A stretch of 64,000 nt of DNA from contig OZ024745.1 of NCBI GenBank assembly GCA_964016885.1, positions 49,600,001 to 49,664,000 on the forward strand, read 5' to 3'. Shown here piece after piece: positions 12,270 through 54,258 of the stretch. The first letter of the stretch is position 1, and every line of letters starts with the position of its first letter. The notes under the pieces are model-generated. The model saw only the letters and a list, made by a program, of their open reading frames with translations, did no database searches and was not told the DNA's origin. The translations under genes and the position numbers were made by a program. Source of the DNA: Eledone cirrhosa. Taxonomy: Eukaryota.

Positions 12270-15200
12270 TAAGGATAAGGACTTTTTAAGTTGTCCAAAA
12301 ATGCGCATGGCTGGCTATTCAGACCACAAGTTAGTGACCTGCATGGTCAACCTTGACAGAACGCATAGACAGGGACCCGGTTACTGGAAGCTCAACTTGT
12401 CCTTACCGGCAAGTAAGGCTTACAGGGACCGGATTAGCACTTAAGTTAAGGAGCGGTTGACCGGCGCCATCGTCAACAGCAGGTGGTGGGGATCTCTCAA
12501 AAGTGAGATTAGAGTAGTCTCTATAGAATTTAGTAAGGAGTTAGCCTCAAATAGAAATAGGAAGGAAAGGGAGTTGGTAGATAGTGTAGAAGAGGCAATT
12601 AGAAGCGACGACGTGGCCAGAGTGCTAGCGTCGAGAACGGCCCTGGGCCAGTTCTTCGACGCGAAACACGAAGGCTGCATCGTCCGAAGCAATATACGTG
12701 CTCTGGGAAACGAGGGGACCAAAGCTGTTAGCTGGGCCCGCGTGACAGAAGCCAAAAGAGGGAGTAGATCCACTATCCGGTCTTTGCGAGACCAGGATGG
12801 ACGGGTGATCCTTGAACCTAAGCAGATGTGCGAGGCCTTTCAAAGGCACTTTGCCAGATTGTTCAGAATGGGCGGGGAGCCGGTTGGGGAAGTGGACTTC
12901 AGTCCATACCTCGACGGCCTGCCGCGTCTCTCGGACAGGGAGGCGAAGTCCTGCGAGGAGCCGATTTCAGCCGCTGAGATAGAGGACGTGCTGAGCCAAT
13001 GCGGCAAACGCAAATCCCCAGGTCTCGATGGTCTTCCATACGAACTATATCTAGCTATGCCGGACTTGTTCGCCGATCTCCTCGAGGCGTCTACTGTAAC
13101 TGGCAACAGAACGGGAGAATTCCCTGTGCTGTGATCAAGGTCGTAGTCACGCTAGTGAGGAAGGACGAGAACAAGGGGGACGGTATAAATAATTTCAGGC
13201 CCATAATTCTGCTAAATACAGAGTTACAGATTTTGGCCAAGGTGCTAGCAAAGAGGTTGGCGCTTACGTGGGCAACCTGGTGGGAGAGGCGAAGACATGT
13301 GCTATCCCGTCCAGATCCACCCACGACAACCTCCACCTCATGCGATACATCATAGAGAGGGTTGGGAACGAACCCGGCTTTGGTGGGGCCCTGATCAACT
13401 TGGATCAATCTAAGGCGTTCGATAGGGTCGACCGTGGTTACCTGGATGCGGTGCTAGCGGCGGCAGGCTTCGGACCCGTTTTCAGGGGCTGGATCAATGC
13501 CATGCACAGCAGCCGCATCTGCTCTAGGGTCAAGGTGAACGGCTACCTCTCGGAGCCGTTCGAAATCGCGCGGTCCATCCGACAAGGGAGCCCTCTCTCT
13601 CCCCTTCTGTATGTAATGACTCTAGAGCCACTGCTGCGGAAATTGGAGTTGTTGCAGGGCATCCCGTTGGAACCGGGATTGCGGAAAGCGGTGTCGGCCT
13701 ACGCCGATGACGTAACAGTAATGGTGTTGACGGCCTCGGAAATCGGGGCGATCGGCACCTTACTGGAGGAGTACGAAAGGTTTACAGGGGCTAAGCTGAA
13801 CCGGGACAAGTCGATCGGTCTGCAACTCGGCACGTGGAGGGGCAGATCGATGCCCTCCGATGGCGTCGTCGGGCGCTGGACGGAGGGCCCGGTGAAGTTG
13901 CTCGGGGTCAGGTTCGGACCAGACCTCCAGGTGGAGAAGAACTGGGGTGAGGTAACGAACAGTGTGTTTGCACTGACCCAGAAGTGGGCCGAGTGCAAAC
14001 TGTCCCTGAAAGGTCGGGCGGAGGTGGCGAACACTTATATAGCGTCCGTCATCTACTACCGCCTGAACGTTGTGCCTTGACCAAGGGAAACGCTCACCAA
14101 AATGGAGCGCGCACTCTTCCACTTCCTTTGGAAGAAGCGGGCTCCTATGGTGGGGAGATCCATCTGCTGTCAACACCCTTTGAAAGGAGGGCTGGGGATG
14201 CCGTGGCTAATTATACGTAAACACGCATTAAGGCTACGGCACCTCCAGGTGTGGGCCCCGTTTGTGAGGTGAGCCTTTCCCAGACTCGTCTCGCTCACCG
14301 AGATGCAATCCTGGGTCAAGCAAAGACCGAGAAAACTGGGCGCCTGGCACACCGAGTGTGCCCAGGCCCTGACGGCTCTCTGGCAGGCGGACCCGGCTGT
14401 CAGTGGAGAATCCACCTCGTCATTCTATAGAGGGCTGGTGGTTAGCAGGTGCGACGACGCCCTCGGAGAAGCCCTAGACATGGAGGAAGACGAACTGGCC
14501 AACCTGTTCGGTAGGACATTCAGCCCGGGACCCATGGATAACTTCCAGAGGTCCCTGGCCTGGCAGTGCTACCGAGGGGCTCTACCCGTTCGAGAAAGGC
14601 TCTACAGACACGGGCACCCGGGTAGGGACCCCTCGAAAAAGATCTGTCCTAGATGTGTGTGCGACGAGGAAACCGTTGCACACGCATTGGTACACTGCTC
14701 GGGCATTGCCGATCTGTGGGGCTATGTCGAACAACTGCTGTCAGGGGTGGGACCGATCCGGTTGACCACCGAGTCTATTGTAACGATCAAGCCGCCTCCC
14801 CTCTTCAAAAACGAAGGAGAGGCGGTGTTTCTGTGCGTAATAGCCATGGCGAAAGAGGTTGTATGGTGGACGCGTCTGAAAGGACTGAGGTCAGACACCT
14901 TTCTCTCTGGCCAACAACTGGTCCGTTTCTTCCGATATCATTTCGGAAGAAGGATCAGGATGGAGAGAGAGGTGCTGCACCCCAGCCGTTTTTATGAAAG
15001 ATGGGTAAAAGTGGCGAGAATGGCAGACTATAGGTGAGGAAGATAAAAGATCAAGTGAGCACCCCCTCTCTGTGCTCCTGAGGAGAAGGGTTGCACACTT
15101 TTTTTGGGGGGGGGGGGGCGACCCCCCAAGGCGCCTCCTCCTTATTGAGGATTTTGTTATTAAATTTATTTTTGTTATGTTGTATTTTATTTTTATATCT

Positions 15201-20240: not shown

Positions 20241-21828
20241 TCTTCGGCCGACACAAATTGGGAAATTTGACGCCCACGTTATTTCTAGCTGAATGTAACT
20301 GAAGTGAAATAACTACATGAATCGAAACTGATTTTCAGCTTTACGGTGTTTGCAAAAAGACCGGGTATAAATGTAATTAAGGGAGAATGAGATAAAAATC
20401 AAGGAGAAGGGTAATACACTTCAGTTTATATGCATTGTAGCGTAAAGCTATCCTTTGTTTTTTTTTCTTTTGTAAGCACATTTCAACAATAACAGAAAGT
20501 AGACTGTTTAATGAAATATAGTGAAGTAGCAGAACGCTTCTATGTAGGGTAGGGGGATATATAGATAAAATTATCAATAGTTAATCATTCGAATTTATTA
20601 TAGCATAAATGAGATGTCCCTTGCATCAATGGTTAATTGTAATGAATTGAACAGCTGTTCATTGAGTTTGGCAGCTGTACTAAGAAGAGATTGGGTGGCT
20701 TGATTAAATAGCTTATATTCTATATTACTTGCCATCTAAATGTTATAGCACATTAATATTGCTGATTATCTCAGCTGCCCAAATTCTTACGTCAGTGTAT
20801 TATCGATAAACCACAAACATAAAATAATAGGCTTTTGATTGTTGTTTTTTTTTTGGGGGGGGGGGGGGGGTCAAGTAGATTGTGTTAGAGCTTCAATGGC
20901 AGAACCATGTGGAAAATGGCACGTAAATTCATGGTAAAGTGAAGATACTTAAATAAAAGTGCAATGATGTTTTTGAATAATTAACCAAGTTTCTGTTTCG
21001 CGATTCGTGTGTTGATTGATCGGAAAATCTCCACATACAGAGCACAGAAATGGCTGTTTGGTAAAGAAGTTTCTTTTCGCAATCTCGTGGTTTTGGGTTC
21101 AATACCAGAGAGTGGCATCTTGTAGAAGTATCTCCTAACATGGCTATGGGTCAACCAACGTCTTTTAAGTAAAATTTGGTAGACGAAAAGTGTGTGGAAA
21201 CCCGTTCGGGAGACTACTATTTGAGGTCATAGATTTAAGTAGTCGCCAAGTTTAACGCCACCACCTGGCACACTGAAGGACCAAAATGTCAATAAGGACT
21301 ATAGGTAGAAGGCTGACTTCCTAGAAATAGCAGTCAAATCTCTTTCAAATCACGCTCTATCGTCCTTTAAAAATGGAATGACATGTCGGATAATGTTGTC
21401 TAAGATGAACTATGTCTATAAAAAAAAAACCCAGAAAAGTTATGGCTGGGTGGATTTTAATATAAGGTCTGATCTATCAGGACCCTCTTGTCTTGAGGTT
21501 AAACAACTCCATTTCGTAGGGAGAGGTATCACATTGTTCTGACCCTAAAACATATTTCGAATTAAACGTAGATTGCCAGTTATCTGCTCAAGAATGGTTT
21601 TAGGAAAATAAGCGGTAAGATAGGCTCACTGATTCCCAAAACAAGGAACGCCAGTCATCAGATTGGGCCGTTGTTTCCCGGCATAAAGAACAACCTGAAA
21701 TCAGTGTTTTGCTGAAGAACACAGCGCGCTGCCAGGTCCAGGAATCGAACCCATCACCTTATGACTGTGAGTCCAACACCTTAACCACTAGGTCATGTGT
21801 TTCCACTTTCCAAAAATTCTTGTATCGC

Positions 21829-22500
21829 CGGTGAGTTTCACTGAAAACGACACCCTTTGTTTCGGCTTTGAGTATGATTGTTTACTATATACACCTTCAG
21901 GGCGGTGAGTTTCACTGAAAACGACACCCTTTGTTTCGGCTTTGAGTATGATTGTTTACTATATACACCTTCAGGGCGGTGAGTTTCACTAAAAACGACA
22001 CCCTTTGTTTCGGCTTTGAGTATGATTGTTTACTATATACACCTTCAGGGCGGTGAGTTTCACTAAAAACGACACCCTTTGTTTCGGCTTTGAGTATGAT
22101 TGTTTACTATATACACCTTCAGGGCGGTGAGTTTCACTAAAAACGACACCCTTTGTTTCGGCTTTGAGTATGATTGTTTACTATATACACCTTCAGGGCG
22201 GTGAGTTTCACTAAAAACGACACCCTTTGTTTCGGCTTTGAGTATGATTGTTTACTATATACACCTTCAGGGCGGTGAGTTTCACTGAAAACGACACCCT
22301 TTGTTTCGGCTTTGTGTATGATTGTTTACTATATACACCTTCAGGGCGGTGAGTTTCACTGAAAACGACACCCTTTGTTTCGGCTTTGTGTATGATTGTT
22401 TACTATATACACCTTCAGGGCGGTGAGTTTCACTGAAAACGACACCCTTTGTTTCGGCTTTGAGTATGATTGTTTACTATATACACCTTCAGGGCGGTGA
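21829..22500 (+). repeat. Minisatellite, 9 x 74 bp, near-identical units
   Basis: Unit CGGTGAGTTTCACTRAAAACGACACCCTTTGTTTCGGCTTTGWGTATGATTGTTTACTATATACACCTTCAGGG, starting at 21829, 21903, 21977 ... 22421. Confidence 0.97.
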
Positions 22501-22692
22501 TTGGTAGAATAGTTGGACTGTCGGAGCTTTGCTGTCGTTCTTTACGTTCTGAGTTCAAATCGCGTCGATGTCAACTTTACCTTTCATCCTTTCGGGTCGA
22601 TAAAATAAAGTGCTAGTCAAGTACTGGAGTCGATATAAACGACTTTCCTCTCATCAATTTGCTGATCTTGTGCCTAAATTAGAAGCCATTAT
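22492..22692 (+). mobile_element. tRNA-derived SINE adjoining the minisatellite
   Basis: GGGCGGTGATTGG head, GAGTTCAAAT, core and tail. Confidence 0.8.
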
Positions 22693-30478: not shown

Positions 30479-31292
30479 CGTAAAGTTAAACTAGCATACT
30501 CCTGCGCTAAGAACATGAAGGCCCACATCACCAGCAGCCCTAGGAGCAACACCCCACCAGGGTGCTCTTGCTGTAAGCCTGAAGCTTGTCCCCTTCAACA
30601 GCAATGCAACACACCAGCTGTAATTTAGGAAGCTGTGGTCACTTCCAACCGACCAAACAAACCACAGGAGGTCAAATCCTATGTGGGCATGGCGGAGGGC
30701 CGATTTAAGGAACGTTTCCTGAACCACCAGTCTACCTTCAGGTACTCGGACAGACATTCATCTACGAAACTCGCGAGCCACGTATGGTCCCTCAAGGACT
30801 CAAGTATAGACTACTCCATTCAATGGAAAGCCATCACTAAGTCCAAGCCATACTCAAGGGGAAATCCGACGTGTGGCTTACGTATTGACGAACGAATAAC
30901 TATTCTAAAGAGATTACGCAATAGTGATTGCCTAAACACGAGAAATGAATTTTTCACACGTTGTCCACACGTCACCAAACACTTATTGCATAACTACAAG
31001 GCTCTGGACTGATTCTTTGTAATTTTAGTTTCAACCTAAAAACTTTTCTGACTTTCTCAGTTATCTCCCTTACACCTCTCGCACGCAGTCTAGTATTGCC
31101 TGTGTGAAGTGACCGGGTTTCTGCGCATGCGCATTCGTACGGTTGTCCTTCCTGTTCCTATAACCATGCCCATTCCGAGCTGAGGATCCGCTAAGGTGAA
31201 ACAATTGTTCTCGTGTAACCACTTCTACCTAACTCGTCCCATGGACTGAGTGCTCTACCCCTACGGATATTACCTTCCAGTGTTCCACCACT
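30479..31292 (+). mobile_element. 5'-truncated Penelope-like element: C-terminal GIY-YIG endonuclease, 3' pLTR with hammerhead
   Basis: [73 protein letters not shown], with one in-frame stop at 30626. Both ends in (TA)n. Confidence 0.88.
31176..31213 (+). ncRNA. Minimal type I hammerhead ribozyme motif
   Basis: cgag-CTGAGGA-tccgctaaggt-GAAA-caattg-TT-ctcg; palindromic stem III. Confidence 0.75.
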
Positions 31293-35450: not shown

Positions 35451-37432
35451 CACCGTGTAACAAAAAAAATATTTTTCTCTGTTCCTGGGTTGTAATCACT
35501 TTTTTTTGTGTTGCTTAGGTCCCAAATAAATATAAAAAAAGTGCTATTAAGCAGTTAAAAAGTTTGGGTTTGTAAAAATTCTAAGCTATTCACTAGAATT
35601 ATTTTTATGCTGGATTTTACGTTTAATTTGCTTATGTTAAATGATTTTATTATATATGTTTCAGGTTAAATTAAAATTATAAAATAAAGAGTAATACCTA
35701 AAGAAAATTATAAAAGTGCAATAAAGTATAAAATTGTTAAAAAGTGGATTAAAGAGATTTATTGATACTGGATTTTCGCACCCTGAATAAAGGGTAAGTT
35801 GTGTTTTAAGCACGAATTTTCATTAGTATGATTAGTGTTCTTTTATATTATTTAAATATGTATTTCCCTTTCCAATATTTATTTTGTATTGCATATCAAA
35901 TTTATTTTCCAAGACAAGTATTCTGATGAAGAGGAGGAGATGGATGCTGAGGACTTGGATTACCTGCCTGAGGTACCAGAAAATGTTCCTCACTTCCCAA
36001 ACCAAAAAGAAGTCAATGACTTGGTCAGGGATATGGGTCTGACCAAGTCCAATGCAGAGCTATTCGTCTCCAGGATGAAGCAGGGGAACTTGGTCAAGGA
36101 GGAAGTGCAGGTGACAAGTCAGAGAAGTCGACACGAACCTTTCTCAGGCTTTTGCAATCTCAGGGATGGCCTCTGCTTCTGCCATGACGTGCCTGGACTG
36201 TTTGACGTTATTGGGGTGCCGTTTGTGCCCAAGGAGTGGCGGCTATTTATAGACAGCTCCACCACAAGTTTCAAGGCTGTCCTCCTCCACAATGGAAACA
36301 AGTTCCCGACACTGCCCCTAGCTCATTCAGTCTGCCTGAAGGAAGATTACTACAGTGTGAAAGTCCTCATGGAAGCTCTGCAATACAACCAGTACAATTG
36401 GGAAATCATTGGAGACTTCAAGATGGTGGCTTTCCTGCTTGGACTCCAAGGAGGCATTATCAAATTCCAATGCTTCCTCTGCCTTTGGGACAGCATAGCC
36501 ACCTCTGACCACTACAAAAGAAAGAACTGGGAGCAGCGAACAAAATTTGTAGTTGGGACCCGGAACGTCATGTGGGAGCCACTGGTTGATCCCAGGATTG
36601 TGCTCATGCCGCCACTGCACATTAAGTTGGGTTGATGAAGCAGTTTGTGAAGGCTCTCAACCAAGAATCAGCCGCTTTTAAGTACCTTCTTGAGTTCTTC
36701 CCCAAGTTATCTGAGGCCAAAATCAAAGGTGGAATTTTTGTTGGACCTCAGATAAAGAAGGTGTTTGAGTCTACCGAGTTCTCCAATAAGCTCAATAGGA
36801 TTGAGAGAACAGCATGGAACTGTTTCAAGGCAGTTGTTAAGGTCTTCCTGGGCAACTACAGAGCTGAAAACTACCAGCAACTGGTGCAGGATCTGATAAA
36901 GGCTTTTGGCACCATGGGATGCAGGATGTCGCTTAAACTCCATATGCTGGACGCTCACCTGGAAAACTTCAAGGACAATATGGGCGCCTACTCAGAAGAA
37001 CAAGGCGAACGATTCCACCAAGATGTGAAAGAGATAGAGCGGAGGTACCAGGGCCACTACAATGAAAGAATGATGGGGGACTATATCTGGGGGCTAGTGT
37101 GGGAATGCGACCTGGACTACAACGCAAATCCAGGAAATCCAGTCATGTCTGACGTGTATAAGTTGATTTATAAGTGTTATTTGTTTTTACTTGTTTGCTT
37201 TTGATAAGCTTGTGAAATAAAATAAATATATACTCTGTTGATTTAATTATATGAACTGATAAATTTTTTAAAAATGTGTTTTTTCTTGAAAAATATGAAA
37301 ATTTCGAAATATCAAACTCCTGACCACAAACCCAAACTTCTGATTAAATAATAGTGTTTTTTATAATAATGGGATATAACAAACCATGAAATGACACTTA
37401 GAACCGGGGAACAAAAAATATGTTACACGGTG
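35451..37432 (+). mobile_element. Chapaev3-type (CMC superfamily) DNA transposon, internally deleted
   Basis: TIRs CACCGTGTAACA / TGTTACACGGTG; TSD TAA at 35448-35450 and 37433-37435; internal transposase. Confidence 0.88.
35913..37160 (+). pseudogene. Chapaev-type transposase catalytic region, single frameshift near 36633
   Basis: WRLFIDSS..KAVLLHNGN, IIGDFKMV, CFLCLWDS, PPLHIKLG/[L]MKQFVKAL, GIFVGPQI, SEEQGERFHQD, MMGDYIW. The N-terminal zinc-finger region is absent. Confidence 0.85.
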
Positions 37433-43014: not shown

Positions 43015-43493
43015 ATGGCTGCCCCCTCGTTATCGAGTATGACCATTGCACGTTATACCATTATTAATAATTATTATATATCGTGCAATGCCTGTGCGTG
43101 AAGATATTTTTTAAAGTGAGAAAAGACTGTGCACTGAGCCAATCCCACTGTCTGAGCGACAGTAGCTATAACCCGAAAAGAAGAAAAGATCAACATCATC
43201 GGTAACTACTGAGCCGCAGGTTTTATATCGGAGTTATCCCAGTTTCCTGAATTTTATTCGTAGATAGTCGATAGACCAATCGCCCTGTCTTGTGTCCATT
43301 TGTTACCGTCCTATGTGCTCTGGGGCTAGTGATACCGACGTAAATTCACAGAAATCAAAAGGATCTCCAGGGATCGACTGATGAGAAAGGTCTGTTCCAT
43401 GTTTCGTCCGTTTTTCCGTTGTCTTCGCCCACCTTTTTTTAAAATTGATTCCGCGAAGAACAGTCATTCAAATATACGTATATATATATATTT

Positions 43494-43591
43494 GTCCTAA
43501 TAACTTATTTTAGTTATCGCTCCAACGTGAGGTATATGATTTTTAATGCGATGAAATACCAATGATCGTTGGCAAATCACTGATGAGGGAC
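43494..43591 (+). ncRNA. Rearranged (non-circularly permuted) hammerhead-like motif, copy B
   Basis: GTCC-ta-ATAACT-tatttt-AGTTA-TCGC-t-CCAACG-tga-GGTA-TA-TGATTT-ttaat-GCGAt-GAAA-TACC-aatgat-CGTTGG-c-AAATCA-CTGATGA-g-GGAC. Lies in a ~155-bp insert between two (TA)n tracts. Confidence 0.7.
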
Positions 43592-43642
43592 TCATTTTAT
43601 AACATGTAAATCCATGTGCAACCATGCAGTATTCTTCTCCCC

Positions 43643-43685
<43 letters not shown>

Positions 43686-49958: not shown

Positions 49959-52162
49959 GAAAACACAGGTAAGCATTAAGAAAATAATTTTATCCAGGTA
50001 TTTACGACCGTTTCATTGGTAAGTGCAACCTTATATTGCTATACTGCAAATAGCAACCACTCAATGATAATTGTTGTTCACGTCCAAATTTTCAAAATAG
50101 TGAGTAAGTTACTCTTAAAAAAGTTCTTAATATATAGAGAAAAACATTTTTTTAAAATTGTATTTACTAGTATAGAGAGAGGGGAAGAGGAATTAGAAAG
50201 TGGGGGACAAACGGGATAGTATAGAGAGACTCTTAACCTAAATACGGGACTTATAAGACCTTTTCACAAGATTAATGAAAACTTAGCATACATCAACTGT
50301 AACTCAAACCACCCACTATCCATATTTAAATCCATTCCACGCAGCATATCCTTTAGGATCTCCCGCCGACAAATCTTCGAGAAACATGCAGAATACTACA
50401 ATACCGCACTAGACAAGGCAGGCCACTTAGATAGAGTAGAATATATAGATGAGAGCCTCCGCAAAGCGCACACGAACACGCATAACACAAACTCCAGAAA
50501 CACACGCACACACGCACTTACGCATAGAACTACAAATTATACTGTAAATAGAAATACAACATCGAAATCAAACAAGTCACGCAGTAGAAAATATATTTGG
50601 TATAACCCCATATTTAACACCTCTATTAGTACTAACCTACCCTCTACCTTCTTTAGAATAATAAATAAGCACTTTCCAGATTCACATAGATACAGCAAAA
50701 TCCTTAACACTAAATCTATTAGACTATCTTACTCCACGGCACCAAACATAGAGGCACACATTAAGATGCTTAACGCTAAAAAGATACATAACAACACCAG
50801 AACACAAATTTATAACAATAACAATACAATCACCATTGAACACAACAGAATATCTAGTATACAACCACCCACTAATAGGCAAACAAAACGTAACACACTT
50901 GTACAGGCATCGCAGCCCACCAATAATGCCAAAGTTGCCCATGACAAGAATTGTAACTGCCACCTACCTGAAACGTATCCATTACATAATGAATGTATGC
51001 AGTCTAACCTGGTTTACCAATGCACAGTAGAATCAGACAACCAGAAATGGTATTACATCGGAGTGACTGGGAATACATTTAAAGCCCGTTGGTATACACA
51101 CCGTTACGCAATGAAACATTCCCAGCATCGTTATGTAACTACCCTTGCAAACAAGACCTGGCAACTGAGGGAAAGTAACCACCAATACACCCTGAAGTGG
51201 AAAAAATTATCGAACGCGCCCCCATATTATATTATGGTATGAAGCTGTCGATTATGTGATCTTGAGCTGTTCCACATTTTGAGTTCGAAGAATAAGTTAC
51301 TCAACAATAAAATCGAAAGATCAATTTATTGTAACCATAGACTCAAAGAAATGTTTTCGCACTACAAGTGCAAATCGAACCCTTAAACTCTTGCTAGCAC
51401 CTGACAAACTGCATATACTTACACTTTCTACCCTCTTATTGTATCTAACCCCTTTAATTACCCACAAAAACCAATACATATATCCCTCCCTTCTCCTTCA
51501 TTCCTTTTCTATTTCTTTTCGTTTTCTTCCTTTCTTCTCTCCCCTTTTTGGCTATTTTTTCTCTTATTCTTTCTCCCCCCCCCCCCTTCTTTATTTTTAT
51601 TTGTTTTATATATATATTTCTCTCTCTCTCTCTCTCTCCATCCCTCTCGCTATAAACAATTTAATTCTCTTTAACTCACTACAATCTAAATCGACATGAA
51701 GTCTACGTATCAAAACTGATCAAGGAATCCTTCCACTTCTACTCCTCCCTCCATCTTAGTTTGTCCCTCTACTTCCTAACTCTTCTCCCCTTTCCTCTCT
51801 CTCTATACTAGTAAATACAATTTTAAAAAATTGTTTTTCTCTATATATTAAGAACTTTTTTAAGAGTAACTTACTCACTATTTTGAAAATTTGGACGTGA
51901 ACAACAATTATCATTGAGTGGCTGCTATTTGCAGTATAGCAATATAAGGTTGCACTTACCAATGAAACGGTCGTAAATACCTGGATAAAATTCTTTTCTT
52001 AATGCTTACCTGTGTTTTCTCTTTTATACTTTATACTCCAAGATTGAACGGAATTCTTACAAACGTGTGGAGTTACTCCTAACCGTACGTTGAAACCGTC
52101 CATGAAACTGGCTTTCTTAACCACAAAGTGGATCACAATAAGCATTTTCCTGCTTCCCTAAC
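49953..52162 (+). mobile_element. 5'-truncated Penelope-like element with inverted 5' pLTR
   Basis: Thumb-like HINCNSNHPLSIFKSIP, KYIWYNPIFN..INKHFP..IRLSYS, CNCHLPETYPLHNECMQSNLVYQC..YYIGVTGNTFKARWYTH (GIY-YIG). 49953-50218 is the reverse complement of about 51755-52026. (TA)n on both sides. Confidence 0.88.
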
Positions 52163-53485: not shown

Positions 53486-53529
<44 letters not shown>

Positions 53530-53534
<5 letters not shown>

Positions 53535-54222
53535 AATAATGGAGCTGCGGCGCTGCAAATGGGTTACATATGAAAAAGTTTGTCCTCATCAGTGGCCATC
53601 CAACGTCGTAGGCATTTCGTCGCATTAAAGGCCATATACCTCACGTTGGTGCGAGCAACGGCTAAAAAAAAGTCGTTGGGACACGTAAATAAAGGGGACG
53701 CTAGGGTAAACAAACAAAATGGTTTAAGCAGCAGAAAGAGAGGAAGAAGGAAACAAGTCCCAGATTTCTATGAATATAAATTCGGTGGAATCGTGAACGA
53801 GAGAATAAAGACCATCAAACCTGGTTGAAATGTGAGCAAGGAAGGAATTTCGCACAGGTCTAACGGGAGGAAGAAGGGGTCTGGTCTGCGAATTCGGTAA
53901 ACATAAGTTCTGTGAAGTCGCAGACGAGAGAGAGAGTGAAAAAAAATTCATACCGGCTTGGCCAAGTGCCCGCGAGAAAAGGATTGTGGACAGGTCAAAC
54001 GGGAAGAAAGGGGAGGAGGAGAGGTAGTGACAGAGAGTGAGTGAGTGAAAGGTGAGGAAGAGGCTAACAGAGAGAGACTGCTAGAAAGGGTAAAGACACA
54101 AAGAACGAAACAGACTGGTGGCAGCGGAGGAAAAAATATATGTGTAAATATGATAATAATGGAGCTGCGGCGCTGCAAATGGGTTACATATGAAAAAGTT
54201 TGTCCTCATCAGTGGCCATCCA

Positions 54223-54223
<1 letters not shown>
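53530..54223 (-). mobile_element. Non-coding element with ~75-bp direct terminal repeats (pLTR-like) in (TA)n
   Basis: 53530-53604 is identical to about 54149-54223; purine-rich interior; carries rearranged hammerhead copy C. Confidence 0.7.
53581..53683 (-). ncRNA. Rearranged (non-circularly permuted) hammerhead-like motif, copy C
   Basis: Minus strand: TGTCC-CAACGaCT..AGcCGTTG-c-TCGC-a-CCAACGT-g-AGGTA-TA-TGGCC-tttaat-GCGAC-GAAA-TGCCT-acg-ACGTTGG-at-GGCCA-CTGATGA-GGACA. Confidence 0.72.

Positions 54224-54258
<35 letters not shown>

Follow-up and report, generated by a model that had tools for sequence, protein, structure and literature searches.

Hammerhead ribozymes of types I, II and III carry their three core strands, namely the CUGANGA strand (C), the GAAA strand (G) and the cleavage strand (S), in the circular order C-G-S, and match Rfam models. 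A different arrangement was described by Eckert et al (2023; PMC10085705), who report 583 sequences of type SGC and two of type CSG. Cleavage of SGC RNAs at the predicted site was demonstrated in vitro, including tests that disrupted and restored stems, and according to the parts of that paper available to us these RNAs come from metatranscriptomes only, with none in the genomes of known organisms. In type SGC (HRIMA-1 and variants) a helix flanking block C joins stems I and II, and block C was assumed to carry the whole strand of stem II. Kink-turns, octopus and nematodes go without mention in the available portions of its text and supplement.

Two groups of mobile elements are relevant for comparison. 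Naiads, a clade of Penelope-like elements (PLEs), were described by Craig et al (2021; PMC8557442) as lacking canonical hammerheads and inserting into (TA)n; the accessible part of that study flags 10 of them as 'HHR_core' and 8 as 'HHR_half_core', an octopus and a squid element being among the latter. Non-LTR retrozymes are non-coding tandem monomers with one hammerhead each, are present in thousands of copies and have been proposed to be non-autonomous PLE derivatives (PMC7229834; bioRxiv 10.64898/2026.07.22.740005). They are defined by type I hammerheads, and their RNAs are about 170–400 nt long (Cervera and de la Pena, 2020; PMC7229834). We found no permuted form and no octopus or cephalopod in the accessible portions of PMC7229834 and of Li et al (2026). 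Finally, a standard kink-turn lies between two helices and has G.A and A.G pairs after a 3-nt bulge (PMC4382518), and McPhee, Huang and Lilley (2014; PMC4382518) showed that turns with 3n=G or 3b=C fold in metal ions and that box C/D turns need protein.

Our literature search, which covered few subscription journals, returned nothing on permuted hammerheads from Naiads or the genomes of animals, nor on a kink-turn in a natural hammerhead. An earlier sequence-only reading of the locus studied here had implied that its strand order was new and had mentioned rearranged hammerheads in Xenopus. Neither point was supported: type SGC had already been described and found to cleave, and Xenopus is mentioned nowhere in the available part of PMC10085705 or in any other such paper that we could find.

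Results

The window, that is, the whole 64,000-nt stretch of Eledone cirrhosa DNA analysed here, contains the hammerhead core in S-G-C order at three sites, designated copies A (minus strand), B (plus strand) and C (minus strand). A descriptor that required NUH, GAAA and CUGANGA to follow one another as S-G-C, together with a stem III of 4 bp and a stem I of 5 bp, gave exactly three matches in the window and none across 40 Markov-1 control windows. These are the sites at which the sequence-only reading had proposed a non-circular strand order; all the coordinates it gave for the three copies were correct on re-reading, and its predicted cuts, 3′ of 43536, 1251 and 53635, were confirmed as positions. 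Its expectation that Rfam would miss the motif was also borne out, since no hammerhead matched over 43440–43660 up to E=10; three of the five weak matches in this interval were to C/D snoRNAs. No hammerhead was found among the Rfam matches listed for the whole window (150 of 183), and a tRNA gene search of the window called none.

Copy B belongs to a 5′-truncated subfamily-B insertion (43492–43662, plus strand) that shares 93% identity with a natural B monomer and has (TA)n on either side. Read on the plus strand, its motif opens with the 5′ strand of helix X (43494–43497), which pairs with 43588–43591 and closes the whole motif. Then come hairpin Y (43498–43516), shortened in this copy by a 3-nt deletion, the 5′ strand of helix Z, or distal stem II (43517–43521, pairing with 43547–43551, the fifth pair being mismatched in copy B), and the 5′ strand of helix IIIb (43522–43527, pairing with 43567–43572). 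The non-bulged strand of a kink-turn-like motif (U3n, G2n and A1n; 43528–43530) leads into block S (43531–43536), which comprises the 5′ strand of stem III (GGTA, 43531–43534) followed by U16.1 and N17 (UA, 43535–43536), with the predicted cut 3′ of 43536. The 5′ strand of stem I (43537–43542) pairs with 43574–43579 to form a pseudoknot, and a UUAA linker (43543–43546) joins it to helix Z. Block G (43547–43560) holds the 3′ strand of helix Z, Y11.1 (43552), GAAA (43553–43556) and the 3′ strand of stem III (TACC, 43557–43560). The bulged strand of the kink-turn-like motif follows (43561–43566; a 3-nt bulge, then G1b, A2b and U3b), and after it the 3′ strand of helix IIIb, a 1-nt link and the 3′ strand of stem I (43567–43579). 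Block C (43580–43591) ends the motif with CUGAUGA (CTGATGA, 43580–43586), R10.1 (43587), which pairs with 43552, and the 3′ strand of helix X.

The other two copies lie on the minus strand. Copy A, with a C at the free core position 7, is part of a 5′-truncated element (1119–1374) whose ribozyme motif spans 1189–1300, with its predicted cut 3′ of 1251. The element containing copy C (53516–54224; motif 53575–53685, predicted cut 3′ of 53635) consists of one monomer plus tail, is 98% identical to a natural C monomer and has its 5′ end 31 nt to the 3′ side of the predicted cut upstream. The extra helix of copy C had been taken as a third covarying form, which we could not sustain: it is private to this copy, with one base deleted and one substituted relative to its subfamily. 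A fourth, decayed copy (43291–43395, plus strand), about 100 nt upstream of copy B, was matched by covariance model R1, built from 18 genomic copies (51.5 bits, E=2e-9). It resembles the old subfamily F described below (alignment A4), has several core pairs broken and is probably inactive.

Other repeats occur in the same window. A dispersed SINE-like repeat with at least 15 copies (family D20), which we take to be a cephalopod SINE family, is found between 3305 and 56406. Broken LINE-type reverse transcriptase frames are present at 12445–15037 (plus strand), a tandem array with a 74-nt period at 21681–22646, fragments resembling PLE C-terminal GIY-YIG regions at 30629–31012 and 50220–51242 (both plus strand), and two neighbouring transposon-protein-like ORFs of 259 and 192 aa at 35856–37204 (plus strand).

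Across the 3.0-Gb genome, the core pattern, which had the kink-turn G.A positions built in, gave 9,397 exact matches (4,720 + 4,677), compared with none (0 + 0) for the reversed control pattern. DNA searches, in which the G.A positions were not preset (nor are they in the published Naiad consensus ends), retrieved 1,665 candidates with copy B and 2,476 with copy C; the 40 scored in each case showed 96–99% identity. At least five young subfamilies (A–E) could be distinguished. An old and divergent subfamily, F, with about 80% pairwise identity, was represented by 77 matches to a pattern that again included the G.A positions, against 0 in the control, and its stems all pair although they were absent from the search pattern.

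The 22 distinct complete head-to-tail monomers that we recovered are 531–806 nt long, about two-thirds pyrimidine, and carry one motif each; one array contains nine units. Their longest ATG ORF encodes 32–105 aa in A–D monomers and 119–195 aa in the simple-repeat-rich E units. The 3′ ends of the elements are fixed, about 70 or 120 nt past the predicted cut, and run into (TA)n: (TA)5+ was found within 130 nt of the core at 53 of 59 loci, and the other six enter the next monomer. The 5′ ends are variable and several adjoin an inverted copy (e.g., L039, L139 and L144). As expected of a Naiad-derived PLE, the elements sit in (TA)n, keep a constant 3′ end, are truncated at the 5′ end and occur as partial tandems and inverted copies, and the available part of Craig et al (2021; PMC8557442) describes such an insertion organisation for PLEs. 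The attribution of the motif to a PLE family is supported as far as the Penelope-like link goes, more precisely one that probably leads to the Naiad clade, but not for a coding PLE, since the element is a non-coding, non-autonomous tandem repeat.

To assess structural conservation, we used two alignments. Alignment A2 contains 18 sequences, namely 12 A–E copies and 6 of 30 F loci hand-picked for completeness, and covers 23 pairs. Of its cells, 93.5% are paired, and its covariation score of 0.676 drops to 0.157 or less once the structure is slid; the subfamilies are related and cells overcount events, so that this covariation represents about six lineages. Both the percentage paired and the covariation score exceeded all 500 shuffles. 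Double changes were seen at 16 of the 23 pairs, mostly from the split between A–E and F, and their number did not beat the shuffles (55/500). Alignment A1, with 15 A–E copies and 34 pairs including X and Y, is 95.3% paired with 11 double-changed pairs, helices X and Z being nearly constant.

Stem III is 99% paired in alignment A2, with four of five pairs double-changed; the corresponding values are 95% and four of six for stem I, 94% and five of six for helix IIIb, and 83% and two of five for helix Z. Hairpin Y, which subfamily F lacks, has four of seven pairs double-changed in alignment A1. The weak covariation of helix X is due to its varying little within A–E. Core letters (CUGANGA, GAAA and NUH) are kept while stems I, II (10.1–11.1) and III covary. 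The UUAA linker is nearly invariant in alignment A2, and read by eye it also appears in three coral Naiad consensus ends. The G and A of both kink-turn strands are invariant in the two alignments, and the letters of the bulge vary. With gaps counted, identity between A/B and C/D/E is 0.68–0.73 in the motif and 0.28–0.40 in the rest of the monomer. Sequence comparison thus shows all core nucleotides, stems I and III and the 10.1–11.1 pair, with X, Y, Z and IIIb as four further helices.

The purine following CUGAUGA pairs with the pyrimidine preceding GAAA (10.1–11.1) in 18 of 18 sequences of alignment A2 (UA 7, CG 7, UG 4) and in 15 of 15 of alignment A1. A simple stem II helix immediately after CUGAUGA was ruled out, as just one pair forms there. 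Stem II instead amounts to this single pair, which helices X, Y and Z join in a four-way junction, or in a three-way junction in subfamily F. Stem III passes an internal loop and then goes on as helix IIIb. In this loop, which lies between two helices, a variable 3-nt bulge is followed by G and A, which face G and A. With its bulge and tandem G.A/A.G the loop matches a kink-turn at the sequence level, here within a hammerhead stem, unlike standard kink-turns. The core and stems I and III named by the sequence-only reading were retained; that reading had named no stem II, and the branched junction there and the kink-turn-like loop had escaped it.

Helices Z and IIIb are separated by 0 nt, helix IIIb and stem I by 1 nt, and stem I and helix Z by 4 nt, from which it follows that stems I, II and III should meet at their far ends. 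In the fold that we propose, stem III would extend 4 bp from the core, be folded back by the kink-turn and resume as IIIb, and the distal ends of the three stems would form a second junction, yielding a closed cage. Such a cage would stand in for the usual contact between loop I and loop II, and a sharp bend in stem III is what it would need. In ViennaRNA folds, which cannot include pseudoknots such as stems I and Z, helices X, Y, IIIa and IIIb all reached p>0.5 in window copies A and B and in genomic copies A1 and D1; for window copy C, genomic copy C1 and subfamily F, other folds were returned and the nested scaffold was not recovered.

The turn comes in two forms. At the 3b.3n pair, subfamilies C and E and most of D have 3b=C or 3n=G, and subfamilies A1, A2, B and F have U.U. 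A U.U after the G.A pairs is a trait of box C/D kink-turns. The U.U of these subfamilies, and of the octopus Naiads, resembles the box C/D form, and gating by the 15.5K protein is a possibility. By the rule of McPhee et al (2014), subfamilies C and E and most of D would kink-fold in ions alone.

Compared with type SGC (PMC10085705, as far as available), the motif shares the S-G-C order, all core nucleotides, two pseudoknots and a short link between stems I and II, and standard models miss both. The two differ in what surrounds the core. In place of a helix flanking block C that joins stems I and II, helices X, Y, Z and IIIb are found here, and block C contributes one pair or none to stem II rather than its whole strand, the rest being helix Z from the 5′ strand.

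We then inspected by eye the last 330–400 nt of 52 Naiad consensus sequences from the supplement of PMC8557442. Nine of these 3′ ends could be read as S-G-C motifs in which stems I and III are accompanied by helix IIIb: Bfor from a ctenophore, 3_Chem, Amil, Aacu, Anas and 2_Movir from cnidarians, Obim and Ovul from octopus, and Esco from squid. By eye, helix Z is clear in all of them but Esco. Naiad_Obim and Naiad_Ovul appear to have X, Y, the same T-rich hairpin loop and the same kink-turn, each helix being of different sequence, and three coral Naiads show X, Y and Z with a plain bulge in place of the kink-turn. In Obim, Ovul and the corals, nucleotide 10.1 is apparently supplied by the 5′ strand, a branch-migration shift of one base pair relative to subfamilies A–F, in which it follows A9. 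Six nematode Naiads (1, 2 and 3_Nbra, Hcon, Hpol and Asuum) were read as C-S-G with a long extra helix. The other 37 ends had neither order in the part inspected. Judged by eye, these published Naiad ends seem to have the fold of the young subfamilies, with helix sequences that are wholly different. Further likenesses to the Naiads, as far as that source describes them, are the (TA)n targets, partial tandems, inverted 5′-truncated copies and a short tail; the absence of an ORF sets the present element apart.

A separate observation concerns bivalve, hemichordate and some hydrozoan Naiads, whose ends have no CUGANGA in the part inspected and carry another conserved motif just past the ORF, which could be a different ribozyme or structured RNA.

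In a search for a coding partner, none of 45 GIY-YIG loci (30 best and 15 stretches) had the S-G-C motif attached to an ORF. These loci are PLEs with a C-terminal endonuclease, and three S-G-C profile matches in them are separate insertions. The 20-nt motif of the published octopus Naiad is absent from the genome, the two matches obtained being at chance level. A reverse transcriptase (RT) motif pattern gave 22 matches against 25 in the control, which is chance overall; five of them are Naiad-like remnants. A narrow genome search for the Naiad ORF (N-terminal GIY-YIG and RT) found decayed remnants only. The Naiad-type RT remnants are about 70% identical to one another, with a weak upstream GIY-YIG signal in two. 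Ten such remnants share a heavily decayed 3′ region that reads S-G-C, with U3/A8 replacing C3/G8 and a hairpin in the S-G linker (alignment A3; e.g., L213, L217, L218, L223 and L236). This region is 79.8% paired, compared with 23–53% when slid. Covariation among the ten did not go beyond shuffles (217/500), and model R1 found no match in the Naiad-type remnants of this genome.

The PLEs of the genome offered two further observations. Minimal type I hammerhead motifs with a stem III of 1–2 bp occur in PLE-associated repeats (L090:1035, L117:6139 and L123:3490, and in L114, L121 and L123 about 400 nt past the ORF); they are probably dimer-type ribozymes. Two long open PLE ORFs, L111:2009-4822 (minus strand) and L113:1775-5062 (plus strand), with 938 and 1096 codons stop to stop, encode an RT, a CxxC linker and, at the C-terminal end, GIY-YIG and are candidate young autonomous elements.

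Two genomic signs bear on cleavage. In 16 copies, 1–12 additional bases stand immediately 3′ of N17: seven of these copies have non-templated inserts of 2–7 nt, and the other nine have duplications, TA slippage or single bases. At the single control site, before GAAA, 8 copies have extra bases, 7 duplication-like and one a single base, with no non-templated insert of 2–7 nt. With classes sorted by eye, the statistics are p=0.016 (binomial, 7:0), p=0.07 (7:1), p=0.054 (Fisher, 7/16 vs 0/8) and p=0.15 for the totals (16 vs 8). Inserts at the predicted bond are expected if cut ends rejoin by ligation or template jumping, so that these scars, few as they are, point indirectly to the predicted cut.

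The second sign is the distribution of 5′ ends among 86 elements, namely those reaching >60 nt above the last site, with loci chosen for insertions and the array excluded. Fifteen of them have their 5′ end no more than 60 nt to the 3′ side of the predicted cut upstream, and the preceding four bins hold 4, 4, 4 and 6 (p about 0.001–0.004 after 17 bins). Eighteen of the 86 begin at or beyond the upstream predicted cut and 17 extend beyond it. Exactly at the predicted bond we counted 2 of 121 ends, two more being reference-edge artefacts. Reverse transcriptase stalling at the fold would explain the pile-up equally well.

Discussion

Taken together, our results make it highly probable that the motif is an S-G-C hammerhead in a high-copy, non-coding tandem retroelement, likely self-cleaving 3′ of 43536 as a single unit, and that the element is likely a non-autonomous derivative of a Naiad-type PLE. 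In the life cycle that we envisage, read-through transcripts of tandem copies would be cut into unit-length RNAs, and a host ligase might close these into circles, as it does with type I retrozymes. The reverse transcriptase/GIY-YIG nuclease of a PLE would then copy the units into (TA)n sites from the fixed 3′ end, a step that could produce the 5′-truncated, partly tandem and inverted insertions. This organisation resembles that of non-LTR retrozymes, from which the element differs by its S-G-C order and by its monomers of 531–806 nt.

Other explanations were weighed against this one. The same core might assemble only as a dimer or as domain-swapped tandem units, like minimal PLE hammerheads, and the sequence-only reading had suggested that the motif could work as a dimer. 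The units are in tandem, the links between the distal helices measure 0, 1 and 4 nt, minimal type I motifs in which stem III is very short occur in other PLEs of this genome, and cleavage as a dimer is known for vertebrate retrozymes (PMC7229834, in its available part). We nevertheless regard an obligate dimer as unlikely: stem III is not a hairpin of the short palindromic kind, the second junction and the kink-turn-like loop would offer an intramolecular path and thus a monomer fold, and coral Naiads with a longer IIIa also seem by eye to have a longer IIIb, as the fold-back predicts. A real but non-catalytic structure that binds protein or recruits the RT, for instance a snoRNA-derived box C/D-like RNP element, would fit the weak Rfam C/D snoRNA matches (E 0.035–3.7, far under gathering), the U.U after G.A in A, B and F, reminiscent of box C/D, and the state of copy B, with its deletion in Y and its upstream part missing. 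It is hard to reconcile with the lack of a 5′ box C, where a box C/D snoRNA has box C near its 5′ end, box D near its 3′ end and a score at Rfam gathering, and with the insertion scars at the predicted bond. Moreover, core letters and NUH are kept in A–F and in ctenophore, cnidarian and cephalopod Naiads while the helices turn over, and we consider a non-catalytic role very improbable.

A canonical, circularly permuted hammerhead assembled from blocks of neighbouring units (G of one, S and C of the next) was given the least credence and seems scarcely credible to us. Tandem repeats do offer the G-S-C and S-C-G orders across about 530–800 nt, but the local helices IIIa and IIIb are strong and would form first, helices Z, X and IIIb make sense only inside one unit, and the published Naiad ends, as inspected by eye, have one motif in the same local order. 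Local folding of a single unit remains the reading that we favour.

Thus, the motif is likely a real, conserved, non-circularly permuted hammerhead variant within a retrozyme-like repeat, probably of Naiad origin. Its strand order is already known; what we did not find in print are its host, the number of copies, a stem II that branches, the kink-turn and a link to Naiads. The architecture of branched stem II, stem III kink-turn and closed cage, as proposed here, would be new and is invisible to type I–III descriptors and to Rfam, and censuses of animal ribozymes and retrozymes are therefore likely incomplete. More speculatively, the S-G-C cage and its CSG counterpart could be the standard ribozyme of a major Naiad branch spanning ctenophores, cnidarians, nematodes and cephalopods, with the octopod U.U kink-turn forms acting as hammerheads gated by host 15.5K/Snu13 in thousands of copies, an idea that we put forward tentatively and with some doubt. 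If true, a natural kink-turn hammerhead would provide a ready scaffold for protein-controlled cleavage. With the present element, non-circular hammerheads would no longer be confined to anonymous contigs of metatranscriptomes but would have a place in the genome of an animal, in about 10^4 copies, and the likely Naiad link offers a testable answer to why Naiads appeared hammerhead-free.
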